Source: a virus
Lineage: Duplodnaviria; Heunggongvirae; Uroviricota; Caudoviricetes
Strand: one strand, 5' to 3'
Length of the DNA stretch: 17,454 bases
Virus record (IMG/VR): IMGVR_UViG_2579778773_000004
Coordinates: 1-17,454 of that record
Of this stretch, positions 1 through 17,004 are shown one piece after another (the first letter of the stretch is position 1; the number at the start of each line of letters is the position of its first letter). A program made the position numbers and the translations under genes. Under the pieces are notes generated by a model that was given only the letters and a program-made list of their open reading frames with translations, was not told the DNA's origin and searched no databases.

Positions 1-148
1 GTTATTACCCGATCTCGATGGAAGTTATTGAGTGATCTCCTTTCATGAAAATACGCATTAATAAACAGTTTCTCAATTATTAGTCAGCATCATCAGAAGA
101 AACCCCTCTCCAAAGATAATTTTATAAAATAATATAAATGTCCACGCC

Positions 149-210
149 TGGCACGGAGTAGACTGGCTATCTAAGCTAAAGGTCTGCTGTGAGCGAAAAC
201 CGGACATGTA
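149..210. repeat. Junction element copy A (core TGGCACGGAGTAGAC at 149-163, plus a GCGAAAAC box at about 193-200)
   Basis: Read directly: TGGCACGGAGTAGAC...GTGAGCGAAAACCGGACA. Aligns by eye at roughly 70% identity over about 55 bp with copy B at 2794-2866 (TGGCACGGAGCGGAC...GTGCGAAAACAGACA). Lies downstream of the 211-aa cargo gene on the - strand. Confidence 0.6.
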
Positions 211-516
211 CATATCTGTCAAAAAAGCAATTTTTAGCTGCCACTTCCAGTGGATGGCGGTCGGTCAGGAGATAATAGAAACAAAACATAATCATTAAAT
301 GACTGAAAAATGAAAATTGTATAAACATTCATCTTAGATGACAATTTCAAATGCATCTCTATAATTTCCCCTAGTTCAAACCAGACAGAATCTAACCACT
401 GCAAGTAGTTTTAAAATCATAGGAAAATAACGTGCATCAGCAGAAGCATATGGAAAATACACAACACATTTCAAAAATACATACTTTTAAAATTTTCATT
501 GACTGATATTTTTAAT

Positions 517-1152
517 TTATTTTCGTAAAAAAATCGACGCCCTATCCGGGTTTACTTTACATAGATGAGAAAGATATAGCGCCCTTCGATTAAATTTGCC
601 TTCAGTAAGGTCATCAATGTTTTTCCTGAATGGGTACTTAATCCGTGCAGCTATGTCAAAGTCACTAATGCTTGCATGAGCTTTGGTAAGTTTAGCTATC
701 CCATAAGTGCCATAGCCAAAGTAGCAACAGGATATATATGCTATGCAGATATCATCTGCTGTTGTTGCTTTCCTGATAAGAATGGCTAATATTTGCTCTC
801 TTATTTTTCTTCGAACTGTTTTCTCATATCTCTTAGTTATTGTTCTAACAAACTGTTGGTCTATAGTACTTGCGCCTTGATGAATGTTTTTAAATAATCT
901 CAGATATATAGTTCTTAAAATAGCAACTGGATCAACTCCCCTGTGTAATAGTTGCCGATGATCCTCAGCCACTCTTAATATATCAATTAAAGATAAAGAT
1001 ATAGATCTTTCACTTATCGAACTAAGCCTTATATAATCAATACATTTATAATAATCTTCCATAATACTTTTAACCCTGAATTTAAAAACCATTTCTGCCA
1101 ATAGCAAGTATGGCAATGACAGTAAGGTAATCAAAAAGCGCTTCGCTGCCAT
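517..1152 (-). CDS. Hypothetical membrane-anchored protein (cargo gene, 211 aa from the internal start MAAKRFLITLL...); second gene of a two-gene operon
   Basis: ORF track gives 517..1188 (223 aa). I prefer the ATG at 1152 because AGGAG sits 7 nt upstream (minus-strand reading CAGGAGACGTGAA-ATG). N-terminal hydrophobic stretch FLITLLSLPYLLLAEMVF suggests a TM helix or signal anchor. A 200+ codon ORF in very AT-rich DNA is unlikely by chance. No family recognised. Confidence 0.55.
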   Translation of the reverse strand: MAAKRFLITLLSLPYLLLAEMVFKFRVKSIMEDYYKCIDYIRLSSISERSISLSLIDILRVAEDHRQLLHRGVDPVAILRTIYLRLFKNIHQGASTIDQQFVRTITKRYEKTVRRKIREQILAILIRKATTADDICIAYISCCYFGYGTYGIAKLTKAHASISDFDIAARIKYPFRKNIDDLTEGKFNRRALYLSHLCKVNPDRASIFLRK

Positions 1153-1679
1153 TTCACGTCTCCTGATGTATCTGCAGCGGTGGACCAAAATTTGCCATGC
1201 ATAGCATCTGCATTCACCTTTTGGAAATACAGCAAAATGGTATAACTCCTTAACTCACCTTCCATTTTTATATTCAATGAGGCATGATTTTTCCTTAAGT
1301 AATTTCTCTTAATCACCCCTCGAACCTCTCCAATACTTCTATGCTTACCAGTGTATGGTCTTATATTATTATTGTTTTCAACGTCTTTTGTTTTCTCAAT
1401 AAACCCTTCAATATTATTGTTGTCACATATTAAAGTCAGTGTATAAAACGTTTTTAAATTCAAGTAAGGATTATACGCAGATTTTAGTGTTTTACATTCA
1501 ACTTCAAAGACGCCCGAAAAATTTGGTGGCGGTTTAATATATTCTTTGAATATAAAAATCAATACAGCCGCAATAAGAGTAGCAACAGCACCACTTAAGA
1601 TTTGATTTGTGGAAATAAAGGTTAGAGATGGCTCAAGCCATTCCCAAAATATGTTGAAAAAATCAGTAAATTTATTCAT
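1131..1679 (-). CDS. Hypothetical single-TM membrane protein (cargo gene, 182 aa); first gene of a two-gene operon
   Basis: ORF track entry. Hydrophobic segment ILSGAVATLIAAVLIFIF (residues about 27-45). Its 3' end overlaps the start of the downstream gene by 22 nt, suggesting translational coupling. Very AT-rich. RBS is weak (AAAGAAA). No family recognised. Confidence 0.5.
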   Translation of the reverse strand: MNKFTDFFNIFWEWLEPSLTFISTNQILSGAVATLIAAVLIFIFKEYIKPPPNFSGVFEVECKTLKSAYNPYLNLKTFYTLTLICDNNNIEGFIEKTKDVENNNNIRPYTGKHRSIGEVRGVIKRNYLRKNHASLNIKMEGELRSYTILLYFQKVNADAMHGKFWSTAADTSGDVKWQRSAF

Positions 1680-2076
1680 AAATTTCTTTTGATAGTATGT
1701 TTTTTATATGATGTTACATTTTTGAGAAAAAAGCAACTTCGCCGATTAAAAACTATCTCGCTGGAATTTATGGGCATCATGTTATGAATACATTCTTATC
1801 CCATAGGGAATAAAACCCTATCTATAGAATAAAAATCCAAATTTTATCTTAATAAATCAGATAAAAGATACTTATACTACAAAGGTACTTGTGTAAGATC
1901 AAACTTTTAATCCTATAAGTTATAGATTGAAGCAACTGTGACTTATAGTGCGCACACTTAAGAATCTCCGATGACGATGGTAGCAGGAGACAACTTTTGA
2001 CAACTCACTCCTATTACCAACTTACTGACTTGCTCCGCGTTGAGAGATTTATAGTTATGCCAGCACTGTCCGCTTC

Positions 2077-2116
2077 TGGCACATTGCGGAAGGGCTAACG
2101 GCCCGGAGTAAGTGAG
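2077..2116. repeat. Junction element copy D (TGGCACATTGCGGAAGG, with flanking inverted repeat TCCGC/GCGGA)
   Basis: Read directly: GTCCGCTTCTGGCACATTGCGGAAGGGCTAACGGCCCGGAGTAAGTGAG. Shares TGGCAC-N3-GCGGA with copies B and C. TCCGC (2069-2073) pairs with GCGGA (2086-2090). Lies downstream of the 171-aa gene. Confidence 0.45.
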
Positions 2117-2180
2117 TAACGGATGTTTGCAAGCACTCTTACTGCTGACAATGATCGCATCCAAGATAAAATAGGTGGTG

Positions 2181-2696
2181 TCAAGGTACAGGTTCACCAA
2201 TATAAGTGTGTGTGCAGCAACGACATGTCACCTTAACGTCATCTCTTGTGATTGAAAGGTTTACCTGTTGCAGAATTCCATTCTCATCAACAAACAGACC
2301 TGGGTAAAAACTGCTTTCACCAATGCAGACTAAATCCCTTCGCTGATGCTCATGTAGCGCGACCAACCAGAATACCGGCTCGGTGGTATCAAGACGTCCA
2401 CATACTTCGCTGAATATTTCATTCCACGGCTTGCCAATCTCTTTGATCAGAAAATAAAACAACGGTGTGTAGTCTCGGCCACGCTTCTGTCTGCTATGCA
2501 TTGTCTCGCGCTTTACCAGTAGCTCATCTCCGACTTTTTTGCGATTTCGTTCCCACCGATACTCAGCACCCGGATTATTAGAATGGTGCCGCGTCGTCGT
2601 GTTGACGCTGCGATATAGTTTACGGGACTTATTCTGCTGATGAATACGCATAGCTCGATCTCGTACATCCTTTCTTTTGTGGGCCAGTAGCCCCAT
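2181..2696 (-). CDS. Hypothetical highly basic protein (171 aa), cargo gene of unknown function
   Basis: ORF track entry. AAGG lies 8 nt upstream of the ATG at 2696. Local GC (near 47% by eye) is higher than the flanking AT-rich cargo. Arg/Lys/His-rich N-terminal half. No motif recognised; could be a nucleic-acid-binding protein or a decayed gene. Confidence 0.4.
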   Translation of the reverse strand: MGLLAHKRKDVRDRAMRIHQQNKSRKLYRSVNTTTRHHSNNPGAEYRWERNRKKVGDELLVKRETMHSRQKRGRDYTPLFYFLIKEIGKPWNEIFSEVCGRLDTTEPVFWLVALHEHQRRDLVCIGESSFYPGLFVDENGILQQVNLSITRDDVKVTCRCCTHTYIGEPVP

Positions 2697-2793
2697 TCAG
2701 ACCTTGTGTTACTGTATAAAAAATGAACACCCTTAAAGGCTGTATCATTCTGCTCAAATACCATCCTACTGACAACTACCAAAGGTCGGATTC

Positions 2794-2866
2794 TGGCACG
2801 GAGCGGACAATCAAGTAGAACTGAAGGCCCGCTATGTGCGAAAACAGACAGACACAGATTGATCAC
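2794..2866. repeat. Junction element copy B (core TGGCACGGAGCGGAC, plus GCGAAAAC box)
   Basis: Read directly. Begins 17 bp downstream of the stop of the HExxH gene (2883). Homologous by eye to copy A. Contains a weak inverted repeat AGCGG...CCGCT. Confidence 0.6.
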
Positions 2867-2882
2867 AAACATACCTGAACCA

Positions 2883-3812
2883 TCAGGATTTTATATCCTT
2901 GTGTGGCTCTAATCCTTCAGAAAGGACTTTATCAAATGCAGCATATTGCCTTTGTAATTTACTTTCACATTCATACAGACTCTTTAAACTAACATCATCC
3001 ATAGATTGAAAGAGTCTTTTGTTATCAACTAAATAGGAGTATGCATTAAAAATAGAAACATCCATTATATCTTTCAGTTCTTCATCAGATAGTTTAGTCT
3101 TTTTACTTAAATGCTTAATCACATGTGACTGCAATGCATTTGCGCGAACCATGGCGGGAGGATATTTGCTATTCTTCCCTTCCAATTTACATAGAAAATT
3201 AAAGAAAAAAAATATTGATGTTAAAGATAAACTAACAAGTGTTTTCTCTTCTATTTTTTTCTCCGGGGCCTTTTTTATTGTATTTAAGACGACATCTGCA
3301 ACAAAGTATGCTGAGAATACATCTGCATCATACTCCATTAATGTTTTAATCTGATCTTCACTAAAATCTTCATCGACTACATTGTACCCCATTGAATAAA
3401 CTTGGTAATCACCAATCAGGTTTATTTCTTTACTTTTGGCTAATGATAAGTGTCCACGAGCGACATGTCCAAGTTCATGACCGAAAATATGGTGCCAAAT
3501 AAAGACACACCCTAACGCAACTGGAGCTTCCTTTTCTTTCAAGTCAGGGTATTCTCTCATGAAGAATTCTATATTTTCAGAAAGAATGTCAAACGTTATT
3601 GGTATCAACCCACTCAATAAAATAATATGGAAATTATTGTCTTTTTTTTGTGCGTGAGCATTAAGGTTAAAATCGTCCTTAATGTGCAGAGCTATTTTTT
3701 TACCATCCTCTTCAATAGCGGAGTTTATCTCTATCAATCCTTTTTTGAAGGTATCGTAAACAGGCAAGAAAAAACCACTTTCTATTTTCGAAATTTCATC
3801 ACGGGTCATCAT
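2883..3812 (-). CDS. Putative HExxH zinc metallopeptidase (309 aa; motif HIFGHELGHVARGH), possibly ImmA/IrrE-like; standalone cargo gene
   Basis: ORF track entry. Tandem ATG ATG start with strong RBS (minus-strand TTAAAGGTGGAAAT-ATGATG). HELGH is a zincin-type HExxH motif in a hydrophobic context. A 309-codon ORF in very AT-rich DNA is unlikely by chance. The family assignment is from motif recall only. Confidence 0.7.
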   Translation of the reverse strand: MMTRDEISKIESGFFLPVYDTFKKGLIEINSAIEEDGKKIALHIKDDFNLNAHAQKKDNNFHIILLSGLIPITFDILSENIEFFMREYPDLKEKEAPVALGCVFIWHHIFGHELGHVARGHLSLAKSKEINLIGDYQVYSMGYNVVDEDFSEDQIKTLMEYDADVFSAYFVADVVLNTIKKAPEKKIEEKTLVSLSLTSIFFFFNFLCKLEGKNSKYPPAMVRANALQSHVIKHLSKKTKLSDEELKDIMDVSIFNAYSYLVDNKRLFQSMDDVSLKSLYECESKLQRQYAAFDKVLSEGLEPHKDIKS

Positions 3813-3869
3813 ATTTCCACCTTTAACATGAAATCTAATTCTAATTGATAGGTCTACTTAGTTTCGCTC

Positions 3870-3898
3870 ATTGTACTATTTTATTAAAGTGGGTTGAA
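3870..3898 (-). promoter_or_regulatory. Candidate sigma70 promoter for the HExxH gene (-35 TTCAAC at 3893-3898, 17-nt spacer, -10 TACAAT at 3870-3875, minus-strand reading)
   Basis: Read directly from the reverse complement of 3841-3935. An AT-rich UP-like stretch (CTATATAAAAATGTAA) lies immediately upstream. Implied 5' UTR is about 50 nt. Confidence 0.3.
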
Positions 3899-3935
3899 GG
3901 TTACATTTTTATATAGCATGTCTACTGTCCCTTTG

Positions 3936-3981
3936 TGGCACAGAGCGGACTGTCAGATTAGTTTTTACTCTGTGCCATAGA
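3936..3981. repeat. Junction element copy C: perfect 10-bp inverted repeat TGGCACAGAG / CTCTGTGCCA around a 22-nt loop; putative end-of-operon hairpin after G
   Basis: Read directly: TGGCACAGAG-CGGACTGTCAGATTAGTTTTTA-CTCTGTGCCA. Shares the core TGGCAC(R)GAGCGGAC with copies A and B. Lies 30 bp downstream of the G stop. No U-tract follows on either strand, so it is not a canonical intrinsic terminator. Confidence 0.55.
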
Positions 3982-4011
3982 TGAGTAATCTCACACCAGA
4001 TCTAATACGAT

Positions 4012-4590
4012 TTATTGTGGCATTTCAGGCCATTCTATATCCGGAGCATCTTCCGGCTGAACGCGATTCAGTAGCACACGGTATTTTTTCCAGTGTGTCA
4101 GACTTAACTTTTCTTCCTCGGTAGCCATATCTAAATCGACAGCATCCTGCAGCGTGGCAATAATTTCACCTGCATATGCAATCAGCTCTTTCTTCTGAGA
4201 GTCAGCCGCTCTGACAAGCGCATCACGCTCTGCATTCTCATCATTCACCCACGCATTTCCGTTCCATTTCTGATAATCCCCATCCGGGGAAATGGCTGTC
4301 ACGTCTGGAGGTAATGCGCCAAGTTCAGAAATATAAATGGCTGCTCCTGTTTTTGTTTCATAGACAGTCTTTCCACGATGGTCTTCCACCAGATCCCATT
4401 TCATTTCATCTGCATTGAAAACGGCGGCAAAACCCACCGGAATATCTGGAGGTGCAATGTCTGTACTGTTTGCAGGAAGACCTGTATGCGGCGGAATATA
4501 TGCGTCACTTTCGCCAATAAATTCATTGGTTCCATCAAGTAAATTGAAAACGCGGATAGTTTGTGTCTCTGCACTCATTCTGAAAGTCAT
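4012..4590 (-). CDS. G: Tail fiber assembly protein (chaperone), gpG-like
   Basis: Position immediately after H with a TAATG stop/start overlap. C-terminus ...[10 protein letters not shown] matches the conserved gpG C-terminus as I recall it. The N-terminal part is variable, as expected for the partner of the fiber tip. Start at 4590 is preferred (GAGG upstream); alternative ATG at 4578. Confidence 0.85.
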
Positions 4591-7811: not shown

Positions 7812-8159
7812 TCAACTCACAGGGATGGTTAACGAAAGTTGCTGGCCGGTGTCGTTGTGCTGGCCGTTTAACGTAACTGTCATTCGCCCGTCAAAACTGC
7901 GCTCAGTGGTGACGGATGACAGGGTGACGCGGGGTTCCCATTTCAGCACCGCCATGTAACAGGCGACCTTAATCTGCAACTCAAGCGCCGGGGTCTGCGG
8001 CTGGTCAATCATTGACGCCAGCAACGAGCCGTAATCACGACGCATCACCCGTGAGCCGACCGGTGTGCGCAGGATATCGCCGATACTCTGGCTGATATGC
8101 TCAAGGTCAGTGACAGTCAGGCCATCACTGCAATTCATTCCGAGATAACGCGCTGTCAT
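7812..8159 (-). CDS. W: Baseplate wedge protein gpW-like (115 aa, gp25-like)
   Basis: Length (115 aa) and synteny V-W-J match P2 gpW. Start overlaps the V stop. Confidence 0.93.
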   Translation of the reverse strand: MTARYLGMNCSDGLTVTDLEHISQSIGDILRTPVGSRVMRRDYGSLLASMIDQPQTPALELQIKVACYMAVLKWEPRVTLSSVTTERSFDGRMTVTLNGQHNDTGQQLSLTIPVS

Positions 8160-8791
8160 AGAGGACTCCCGGTTGTGCCGCCGCTGTCGCCGGGGTGTTT
8201 ATGGGTATGCAGCACCTTACCGTTTGATGAGAGTTCACCACCGGTGTGTTCAATGTTGCCGCGCATCGTCCCACCCTTCTGCACTTCCAGCGTGCCGGTA
8301 GTCAGTTTGTTAGTGCAGACCACCTCCGGTGTGTCCAGGGTGACGCGGGTTGATGCTTTCACCATGACCACCGGCACCGTGGCAGTAACAGAATCAGAAG
8401 CCGTCACGCTGGCCGTTTTAATTCCGCTTACCGTGAGTGCACTGGTTTCGGGTTCATACTCAATCACCGCCCCGTCAGGGAAACGGATATGCAGGGCATC
8501 CGCCGACGCAGACGGCGCGGGGTTATCGCCGGAATAAATCCCCGGCAGAACGAACGCCGTGTCGAGTTCACCGCCCACAGCCAGAATCAGCACCTGTTCC
8601 CCCACGGAAGGTGCCCACCATGTGCGCGAACGTCCGGCACGATGGGTCAGCCACTGAAGCCAGTCGGTGCACATGCCGCCGGTCTGCACACGGCAGCGAC
8701 CGGCGTTAAGGTCGGTTTCGACGATAATGCCGGTGCGGATCATGTTGCGCAGTGCGCGCGCGAGTTCCTGAATATTTGCGAGAGTGTTCAT
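8156..8791 (-). CDS. V: Baseplate spike / assembly protein gpV-like (211 aa)
   Basis: Length (211 aa) and synteny match P2 gpV. A 66-bp gap from S contains a GC-rich hairpin; this is the expected site of the V late promoter. Confidence 0.93.
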   Translation of the reverse strand: MNTLANIQELARALRNMIRTGIIVETDLNAGRCRVQTGGMCTDWLQWLTHRAGRSRTWWAPSVGEQVLILAVGGELDTAFVLPGIYSGDNPAPSASADALHIRFPDGAVIEYEPETSALTVSGIKTASVTASDSVTATVPVVMVKASTRVTLDTPEVVCTNKLTTGTLEVQKGGTMRGNIEHTGGELSSNGKVLHTHKHPGDSGGTTGSPL

Positions 8792-15231: not shown

Positions 15232-17004
15232 ATGACCATCACCACAGACACCACTCTTTTACACGACCCGCGTCGTCAGGCGGCGCTGCTGTACTGGCAG
15301 GGGTTTTCCGTGCCGCAGATTGCCGCCATGTTGCAGATGAAACGCCCGACGGTGCAGAGCTGGAAACAGCGCGACGGCTGGGACAGCGTTGCCCCCATCA
15401 GCCGTGTCGAAATGAGTCTGGAAGCGCGGCTGACCCAGCTCATCATCAAACCGCAGAAAACCGGCGGTGACTTCAAGGAAATTGACCTGCTGGGACGCCA
15501 GATTGAACGACTGGCACGGGTCAACCGCTACAGTCAGACCGGCAACGAGGCAGACCTTAATCCGAACGTCGCTAACCGCAACAAAGGCGGGCGCCGCAAA
15601 CCGAAAAAGAATTTTTTCAGTGACGAGGCCATCGAAAAGCTGGAGCAGATTTTCTTTGAGCAGTCTTTCGACTATCAGTTGCACTGGTATCGCGCCGGGC
15701 TTGAGCACCGCATCCGCGATATCCTGAAATCCCGCCAGATTGGCGCGACGTTTTATTTTTCCCGCGAGGCGCTGCTGCGCGCCCTGAAAACCGGTCATAA
15801 CCAGATTTTTCTGTCGGCCAGTAAAACGCAGGCGTATGTGTTCCGCGAATACATCATCGCCTTTGCCCGGCTGGTTGACGTTGACCTGACCGGTGACCCG
15901 ATTGTCCTGGGCAATAACGGCGCAAAACTGATTTTTCTCGGCACCAACTCCAACACCGCACAGAGCCATAACGGCGACCTGTACGTCGATGAGATTTTCT
16001 GGATCCCGAATTTTCAGGTACTGCGTAAGGTGGCATCAGGTATGGCCTCACAGAGTCACCTGCGCTCGACCTATTTCTCCACCCCGTCCACGCTGGCGCA
16101 CGACGCCTACCCGTTCTGGTCGGGTGAACTGTTCAACCGGGGACGCGCCAGCGCCGCCGAACGCGTGGAAATCGACGTCAGTCATAACGCCCTTGCCGGT
16201 GGGCTTCTCTGTGCGGACGGCCAGTGGCGGCAGATTGTCACCATTGAGGACGCGCTGAAAGGCGGCTGCACGCTGTTCGACATTGAGCAGCTCAAACGTG
16301 AAAACAGCGCCGACGATTTTAAAAACCTGTTCATGTGTGAATTTGTTGACGACAAAGCGTCGGTGTTCCCGTTCGAGGAGCTGCAACGCTGCATGGTCGA
16401 TACGCTGGAAGAATGGGAAGACTATGCACCGTTTGCCGCAAATCCGTTCGGCTCCCGCCCGGTATGGATTGGTTACGACCCGTCACACCGTGGCGACAGC
16501 GCCGGATGCGTGGTGCTGGCACCGCCGGTGGTGGCCGGTGGCAAATTCAGGATCCTTGAGCGTCACCAGTGGAAAGGCATGGACTTTGCCACCCAGGCAG
16601 AATCCATCCGCAAACTCACCGAAAAATATAACGTTGAATACATCGGGATTGATGCCACCGGCCTCGGTGTCGGTGTGTTCCAGCTCGTGCGCTCGTTCTA
16701 TCCCGCCGCGCGCGATATCCGCTACACGCCGGAAATGAAAACCGCAATGGTGCTCAAGGCAAAAGACGTTATCCGCCGTGGCTGTCTGGAATATGACGTC
16801 AGCGCCACCGACATCACCAGCTCGTTTATGGCTATCCGCAAGACCATGACCAGCAGCGGACGCAGCGCCACCTATGAGGCCAGCCGCAGCGAGGAAGCCA
16901 GCCACGCCGACCTCGCCTGGGCGACCATGCACGCCCTGTTAAATGAGCCACTCACCGCCGGTATCAGCACTCCGCTGACATCCACCATTCTGGAGTTTTA
17001 CTGA
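15232..17004 (+). CDS. P: Terminase large (ATPase) subunit gpP-like (590 aa from start MTITTDTTLLHDPRR...)
   Basis: The track ORF (600 aa) begins at an upstream non-ATG codon (TTG at 15202). ATG at 15232 has GAGG 5 nt upstream. 590 aa matches P2 gpP. Stop overlaps the Q start (ATGA). Confidence 0.96.
   Translation: MTITTDTTLLHDPRRQAALLYWQGFSVPQIAAMLQMKRPTVQSWKQRDGWDSVAPISRVEMSLEARLTQLIIKPQKTGGDFKEIDLLGRQIERLARVNRYSQTGNEADLNPNVANRNKGGRRKPKKNFFSDEAIEKLEQIFFEQSFDYQLHWYRAGLEHRIRDILKSRQIGATFYFSREALLRALKTGHNQIFLSASKTQAYVFREYIIAFARLVDVDLTGDPIVLGNNGAKLIFLGTNSNTAQSHNGDLYVDEIFWIPNFQVLRKVASGMASQSHLRSTYFSTPSTLAHDAYPFWSGELFNRGRASAAERVEIDVSHNALAGGLLCADGQWRQIVTIEDALKGGCTLFDIEQLKRENSADDFKNLFMCEFVDDKASVFPFEELQRCMVDTLEEWEDYAPFAANPFGSRPVWIGYDPSHRGDSAGCVVLAPPVVAGGKFRILERHQWKGMDFATQAESIRKLTEKYNVEYIGIDATGLGVGVFQLVRSFYPAARDIRYTPEMKTAMVLKAKDVIRRGCLEYDVSATDITSSFMAIRKTMTSSGRSATYEASRSEEASHADLAWATMHALLNEPLTAGISTPLTSTILEFY

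Follow-up and report, generated by a model that had tools for sequence, protein, structure and literature searches.

Near one end of the window analysed here (the whole 17,454-nt stretch of the Caudoviricetes record IMGVR_UViG_2579778773_000004), an open reading frame (ORF) of intermediate base composition sits between two AT-rich modules, which raises the question of whether it is a gene at all and, if so, how it arrived there and what it might do. An initial annotation offered three readings, namely a remnant of an ancestral Z/fun-type gene, an independent cargo gene or a decaying pseudogene. The comparisons below favour the second.

Reading frame, composition and selection

The minus-strand interval 2181..2696 is an ORF of 171 aa when counted from its first ATG, the length originally assigned. 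That frame exists, but its conserved start is Met16. Homologue alignments begin at this residue (window 2651; 91% query coverage, typical length 155–160 aa), an in-frame TGA lies 5' of its equivalent in the Citrobacter and Buttiauxella orthologues (loci L003 and L004), and PGAP calls a protein of 156 aa in two E. coli genomes whose copy is identical. The true product is therefore most likely a 156-aa protein encoded at 2181–2651, and the codons upstream are probably a non-coding 5' leader.

2181..2651, minus strand: coding sequence of the 156-aa protein, Met16 to stop codon (homologue starts, upstream TGA, PGAP, dN/dS)
2652..2696, minus strand: N-terminal extension, 15 codons of the 171-aa frame (frame closed in orthologues; missing from nearly all homologues)

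The ORF has a GC content of 46.5%, compared with 34.0% and 33.3% for the AT-rich cargo to its left (517–1679) and right (2883–3812), in agreement with the earlier estimate of near 47%; the phage backbone (4012 to the end) stands at 55.8%. The description of the protein as highly basic holds for the whole chain (pI 9.5 for 171 aa, 9.2 for 156 aa) but not for its parts, the positive charge being confined to the first 56 residues (pI 11.3, net +10) and the remaining 100 residues, which form the folded C-terminal domain, being acidic (pI 5.25, net −4). The cysteine cluster CRCCTHTY reported near the C-terminus was found at residues 158–165 (171-aa numbering).

Relatives of the protein were detected widely. 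A single-sequence search returned 88 homologue clusters and a profile search 1,217, a representative-level search gave 474 clusters at 50% identity, and when one genome per species was scanned, relatives turned up in 441 species, spread over Pseudomonadota, Bacteroidota, Planctomycetota, Acidobacteriota, Deinococcota and other phyla. The family protein is also encoded on 609 plasmids, many of which are large plasmids of Klebsiella pneumoniae. Distant relatives are encoded by Prevotella Lak megaphages (27% identity over 84% of the length; e.g., MK250016 365972–366433).

Pairwise dN/dS against 14 enterobacterial orthologues was 0.07–0.28. The homologue and dN/dS checks proposed in the initial annotation have thus returned intact frames in relatives and purifying selection, rather than the lack of intact homologues that would speak for a spurious or decayed ORF. 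Such an ORF could be argued from the missing annotated function, the intermediate GC content and a longest frame that overstates the length; however, since hundreds of homologues are intact and dN/dS is 0.07–0.28, both the pseudogene and the spurious-ORF readings are refuted, and the confidently predicted folded domain and the conserved motifs described below also count against them. We give a spurious or decayed ORF virtually no weight, and consider it very likely that the ORF is a real, independent and mobile cargo gene.

Position in the P2 G-FI hotspot

E. coli CE0011b has a P2-like prophage to which the window is 99.96%–99.98% identical; its four cargo genes, the same as here, are flanked by gene G on one side and the tail sheath gene FI on the other. 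G lies beside the cargo in the window and FI follows the cargo in CE0011b, which places the gene in the G-FI hotspot, so that the Z/fun framing of its location in the initial annotation is right. Descent from a Z/fun-type gene did not survive comparison, as BLASTP of P2 Fun(Z) (NP_046777, 528 aa) against the protein gave a best E of 3.5 over 12 residues. The independent cargo gene is instead the reading that fits, with a mobile block of its own, many genomic contexts and purifying selection. The P2 hotspot is a documented reservoir of anti-phage genes (Rousset et al. 2022, PMC9122126).

4012..4590, minus strand: P2-type tail-fibre assembly gene G, phage backbone and left border of the hotspot (Pfam Caudo_TAP E = 3e-40, PHROG 105)
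2883..3812, minus strand: adjoining cargo gene, 309 aa, with an HExxH motif, HELGH (sub-threshold Peptidase_M48, E = 0.08)
517..1679, minus strand: adjoining cargo module, a 182-aa protein and a 223-aa transglycosylase-domain protein (two genes, at 517–1188 and 1131–1679; Pfam Transgly E = 2e-22)

The two sibling prophages differ in their integrity. CE0011b carries an IS2 between gene G and the cargo (L083 9378–10606, corresponding to window ~4060–4065) and its tail-fibre gene is broken up; the window has no IS2 there, and its tail-fibre gene is intact at 591 aa. Window positions 1–56 diverge from the CE0011b prophage, from an island of E. coli NB4833 and from an IncFIB plasmid exactly at position 57. 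Several unrelated phage records contain this segment at 100% identity; it probably represents an insertion-sequence edge or a recombination junction of another kind.

A mobile block with its own candidate promoter

The gene lies within a block of ~750 bp that recurs in settings unrelated to P2-like prophages. Megablast found it at 95.9% identity in 83 other complete E. coli genomes, with one copy in each, located in an integrase island beside ychF/pth and accompanied by different neighbours. Copies in Citrobacter, Buttiauxella, Kluyvera, Enterobacter, Lelliottia and Erwinia are 83%–93% identical to it and likewise have unrelated neighbours. The entire four-gene cargo (window 57–3950) is also present in a non-phage island of E. 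coli NB4833 and in an NDM-4 IncFIB plasmid. The GC content of the shared block (46.7%) is close to that of the ORF.

2062..2809, minus strand: mobile ~750-bp block comprising element half, promoter, leader, gene and element (from shared-block comparisons)
2747..2775, minus strand: sigma-70-like promoter candidate, TTGTCA, 17 nt, CAGAAT (consensus scan; cross-genus conservation)

Conservation upstream of the gene reaches about 110–150 nt beyond the coding sequence and includes the promoter-like sequence, both hexamers of which are kept across genera with unrelated upstream genes. TTGTCA-17-CAGAAT would accordingly be a candidate for the gene's own promoter. The leader of ~90 nt matched no riboswitch or structured RNA in Rfam, and a structured leader was rejected, with an alignment fold of −4 kcal/mol and essentially no covariation. 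A terminator-like hairpin 3' of the promoter is present in the closest relatives only.

A palindromic element at the module junctions

The edges of the block coincide with a palindromic element of ~70 nt, the core of which, GTGCCAGAAGCGGAC, occurs in four copies in the window, all on the minus strand and all intergenic. A core motif search gave these four matches against 0.44 expected, and none of 200 shuffles reached four.

2781..2849, minus strand: upstream copy (core motif; nhmmer E = 3e-15), with the 5' edge of the block (2809) inside it
2063..2131, minus strand: downstream copy, a variant subtype conserved with the gene (nhmmer E = 1e-11)
3923..3991, minus strand: copy just 3' of gene G, at the hotspot edge on the phage backbone (core motif and nhmmer)
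135..211, minus strand: copy 3' of the 182-aa and 223-aa cargo genes (nhmmer E = 5e-16)

These copies split the cargo into three modules, namely the 309-aa gene, the gene for the 156-aa protein, and the 182-aa and 223-aa genes. The 3' edge of the block (2062) coincides with the end of the downstream copy, and in 12 loci this copy sits at a fixed 42–55 nt past the stop codon. From 45–60 distinct copies, the consensus reads GTCCGCT-N10-AGCGGAC, then ~18 variable nt, then GTCCGCT-CYGTGCCAGR-AGCGGAC. Of the 24 positions in each of its two 24-nt arms, 21 are complementary, and a long-hairpin model pairs 83% of cells, compared with 32%–44% for slid registers. At pair 17:70, C-G (15), U-A (12) and U-G (9) replace one another, and the covariation score was reached by none of 500 shuffles. 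These patterns are no more than suggestive of a folded form, which could be one long hairpin or two small ones.

Breakpoints between genomes fall at the element, a coincidence that rests on four independent comparisons. Between the window and NB4833, the shared block ends at 3950, inside the copy at 3923–3991, and at 57, near the copy at 135–211; the end at 57 also bounds the blocks common to CE0011b and the IncFIB plasmid. The window and the ychF island diverge at copies of the element (positions 2062 and 2809), the ychF island and EC2641 inside a copy (L002:9021), and the window and sequenced P2-like phages inside another (3931–3938). Further copies were found at loci L002, L004, L006, L009, L013, L024 and others. 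Among loci carrying the family gene, the element was detected in Enterobacterales only.

The element extends well beyond this gene. In phage P2 itself (NC_001895), its right half follows G (15301–15365) and its left half precedes FI (17425–17484), so flanking fun(Z), and the core pattern matched at least 120 viral contigs. About 20 P2-like contigs have one copy ~50 nt after G and another ~175 nt before FI, some of them with extra copies between cargo modules. In 37 other viral contigs the element lies directly 3' of a Ren-like exclusion gene of lambdoid prophages (e.g., L087 5951–5992) and is therefore not specific to P2-like phages; these lambdoid copies sit downstream of the cI-cII-O-P block. 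None of the 120 element-bearing viral contigs encodes the 156-aa protein, which is therefore cargo and not the mobility factor of the element. A generic genome-wide REP-type repeat was also considered and rejected, blastn (which is insensitive to diverged copies) having matched the element in only three E. coli genomes.

According to a review (PMC8987985), Nilsson et al. 2004 reported a recurring inverted repeat on either side of fun, both in P2 and in bacterial genomes. The window element is probably this fun-flanking repeat and hence known at least in part. In 2026, a survey of P2/P4 hotspots regarded the mechanism by which cargo is exchanged with other elements as unknown and left such repeats unmentioned (PMC13586616). 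Module junctions of P2-like and lambdoid prophages, of islands and of plasmids bear the element, and its re-examination could make the open question of cargo exchange testable.

Integron cassettes elsewhere in the family

Outside the Enterobacterales, other boundaries surround the gene. In Xanthomonas sp. Leaf148 (L066) it occupies (8013–8471) exactly the space that separates two canonical 60-nt attC sites, GCCTAAC...GTTAGGC, at 7943–8002 and 8504–8563; these belong to an array of six to seven such sites, and X. arboricola (L053) has a similar attC arrangement. Each Xanthomonas member is a cassette of ~560 bp with a single ORF. No attC site of the form RYYYAAC...GTTRRRY flanks the window copy. 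From the Xanthomonas attC sites and the enterobacterial element it follows that the same gene travels with two kinds of cassette boundary.

In Bacteroidota, an imperfect palindrome of ~110–125 nt starts just past the stop codon (GCACAAC...) and ends in GTT, and these copies are probably integron cassettes as well; a site resembling this palindrome was found in a Planctomycetes MAG. Pedobacter frigiditerrae carries two copies of an 818-bp two-gene unit, 94% identical to each other and with differing downstream attC-like sites. The relaxed attC scan used for non-enteric loci was noisy.

Genomic neighbourhood

When the ORFs around the gene were clustered, no neighbour family appeared in more than 11 of 83 loci, and a conserved operon partner was rejected. 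The 149 non-redundant flanking ORFs censused with Pfam and PADLOC were a mixture of regulators, transporters and enzymes with a few defence genes, TetR and LysR regulators and metabolic genes being common among them. On Klebsiella IncFIB/IncHI1B plasmids the family gene lies alone, adjoining a ter/PP2C-kinase cluster. The 156-aa protein thus most probably acts alone.

Two recurrent arrangements were nevertheless seen in particular lineages. In seven Pseudomonas species, the family gene lies 52–65 nt 3' of a gene pair for an S-type pyocin, which has a colicin E3-type rRNase domain, and a cloacin-type immunity protein (L044, L046, L060, L064, L071, L079 and L080). At seven Bacteroidota loci, an unannotated ORF of 98–129 aa ends 2–3 nt before the start of the family gene.

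L045 7673–8489 and L047 4085–4902 (Pedobacter frigiditerrae), and L052, L054, L061, L062 and L040: Bacteroidota two-gene units

In the ychF island, the place of the 309-aa gene is taken by an unrelated gene of 295 aa; the 309-aa gene is a separate module, not a conserved partner. Its product may be a metalloprotease-like effector, judging from the HELGH motif, and matches no PADLOC model. The 182-aa/Transgly module is not associated with the family at other loci, and neither of its proteins matches a defence model. The Transgly protein consists of a peptidoglycan glycosyltransferase domain only, an unusual stand-alone form in a phage hotspot.

Predicted structure and conserved residues

Searches with the Pfam, PHROGs, NCBIfam and PADLOC models returned zero matches to the protein even at E ≤ 1, which for the defence models of PADLOC-DB 2.0 means no family at that threshold. 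PDB searches by sequence and by profile turned up nothing significant, a CasX segment (E = 0.27) being the best match, and the structure matches in BFVD were uncharacterized phage proteins only (best E = 3e-3). Homologues are all named hypothetical in databases, bar one unsupported 'Transposase' label on the 171-aa form. Longer family members showed no credible fused domain, and none of the best 120 matches listed in the wider profile search has a Pfam domain. Six protein accessions, covering the 156-aa protein and its neighbours, were not mentioned in the literature searched.

Two AlphaFold models agree on the predicted fold, in which residues ~57–156 (156-aa numbering) form a C-terminal domain of three helices and a four-stranded sheet with the cysteine cluster at its end (pLDDT 88–96), preceded by an N-terminal arm of low to moderate model confidence. 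The topology of the domain is weakly winged-helix-like, with a structural match below significance. Among 102 diverse members, L12, R14, R35, D60, Y61, P63, L64, L68, G73, R86, D122 and G152 are near-invariant; of the candidate metal ligands, C143, C145 and C146 are present in 72%–76% of members and H148 in 60%, the cysteines being lost together in the rest. Because two invariant arginines sit in the 'disordered' arm, the arm has a specific role beyond that of a generic charged tail. The partition of charge, these arginines and the weakly winged-helix-like domain lead us to suggest tentatively, and with less than even confidence, that the protein could bind nucleic acid or a nucleoprotein target.

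Proposed explanation and alternatives

The comparisons show or directly support an independently acquired, functional cargo gene, carried on its own ~750-bp block in the G-FI hotspot of a P2-like prophage. Recombination at the ~70-nt element would most likely have moved it between prophages, islands and plasmids, and in other phyla the same gene moves as an integron cassette. With its basic N-terminal arm and compact acidic C-terminal domain, the protein might be a lone binder of nucleic acid or nucleoprotein, and its habitats (P2 hotspot, integron cassettes, plasmids and a pyocin locus) could point to a role in exclusion, defence or counter-defence. In its entirety, that is, a mobile cargo gene, element-mediated movement and a nucleic-acid or conflict role together, we hold this account with moderate confidence.

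The architecture of the block could also suggest that the protein is itself a small transposase or recombinase for the flanking palindrome, comparable to the TnpA of IS200/IS605 or to RAYT, which would make the block a tiny autonomous element. Its IS200-like build of ~750 bp, with one ORF of ~156 aa and direct-orientation palindromes at fixed distances, fits such a reading, as do the near-invariant Asp60 and Tyr61, the one 'Transposase' label and the two copies of the compact unit in Pedobacter. Yet the protein matches no Y1_Tnp, transposase or recombinase family in Pfam or NCBIfam at E ≤ 1, its HEH tripeptide varies across the family, E. coli genomes each carry a single copy, and the protein is abundant in phyla where attC sites are found instead of a detectable element. 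The absent co-occurrence in all 120 element-bearing viral contigs largely refutes a transposase of the flanking element, and we regard a mobility factor as very improbable. Somewhat less remote, if still improbable, is a toxin or regulator from a two-gene toxin-antitoxin or immunity cassette, the partner of which was lost or replaced in Enterobacterales. Chromosomal integrons commonly carry toxin-antitoxin cassettes, the ORF ending 2–3 nt upstream at the seven Bacteroidota loci suggests translational coupling, and the Pseudomonas gene comes after a pyocin-immunity pair. However, the upstream ORFs are mutually unrelated and match no known family, most loci are without one, and a search for the conserved adjacent partner of a type II system found no recurrent neighbour among the loci compared. 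Moreover, hundreds of plasmids and genomes stably carry the gene by itself under purifying selection, a situation that sits poorly with an unopposed toxin.

An ordinary transcription factor or nucleoid-associated protein, serving host or element genes and taking no part in conflict, would account for the weakly winged-helix-like topology, the basic arm and the frequent TetR, LysR and metabolic neighbours. That reading is unlikely in our estimation, since no conserved target operon or divergent partner accompanies the gene, its patchy cross-phylum transfer in cassettes is unusual for a dedicated regulator, and the structural match to a winged helix is below significance. Returning to the mobile cargo gene, a role in anti-phage or inter-element conflict is suggested because its habitats are documented reservoirs of anti-phage genes; zero defence-model matches and the location of most non-enteric loci outside defence islands count against it, and we see such a role as a possibility of limited weight. 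The more specific proposal of a compact single-gene conflict system (anti-phage defence, superinfection exclusion or counter-defence) with a previously undescribed fold and a conserved basic arm, spread among phyla by integron attC sites and the enterobacterial palindromic element, would be rather doubtful.

The family, with >1,200 clusters, 441 species and about 600 plasmids, has no library annotation and no structural relative, and it recurs where bacteria and mobile elements store small adaptive or defensive genes. Because it is a single 470-bp gene with an apparent promoter of its own, the window copy is a candidate that is cheap to test.

Comparison with known systems

In being a small unit with one ORF of ~150 aa, bounded on either side by directly oriented imperfect palindromes that form hairpins, the block resembles IS200/IS605 and REP/RAYT elements, but its protein is without the HUH/Y1 signature and its palindromes are abundant without the protein. 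Integron cassettes offer a second comparison and include small phage-resistance cassettes (BRiCs), as described by Kieffer et al. (bioRxiv 10.1101/2024.07.02.601719). The window copy is unlike gcu and BRiC cassettes in having no attC, a flanking element of another consensus and an apparent promoter of its own, whereas the family shares with them a compact, stand-alone form that occurs inside and outside integrons.

The closest parallel in position is with the cargo ('moron') genes of the P2 hotspot. Unlike fun(Z) of P2, the window gene encodes 156 rather than 528 aa, with no sequence similarity, no defence-model match and no known phage-exclusion phenotype. Like fun(Z) and other such genes, it occupies the G-FI position and has an atypical GC content, and the fun(Z) module and the window module are flanked by the same inverted-repeat element; the window module occurs in bacterial chromosomes and plasmids as well. 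The gene is a previously uncharacterized example of a mobile gene, cargo or cassette, and the hotspot that it occupies is an established one.
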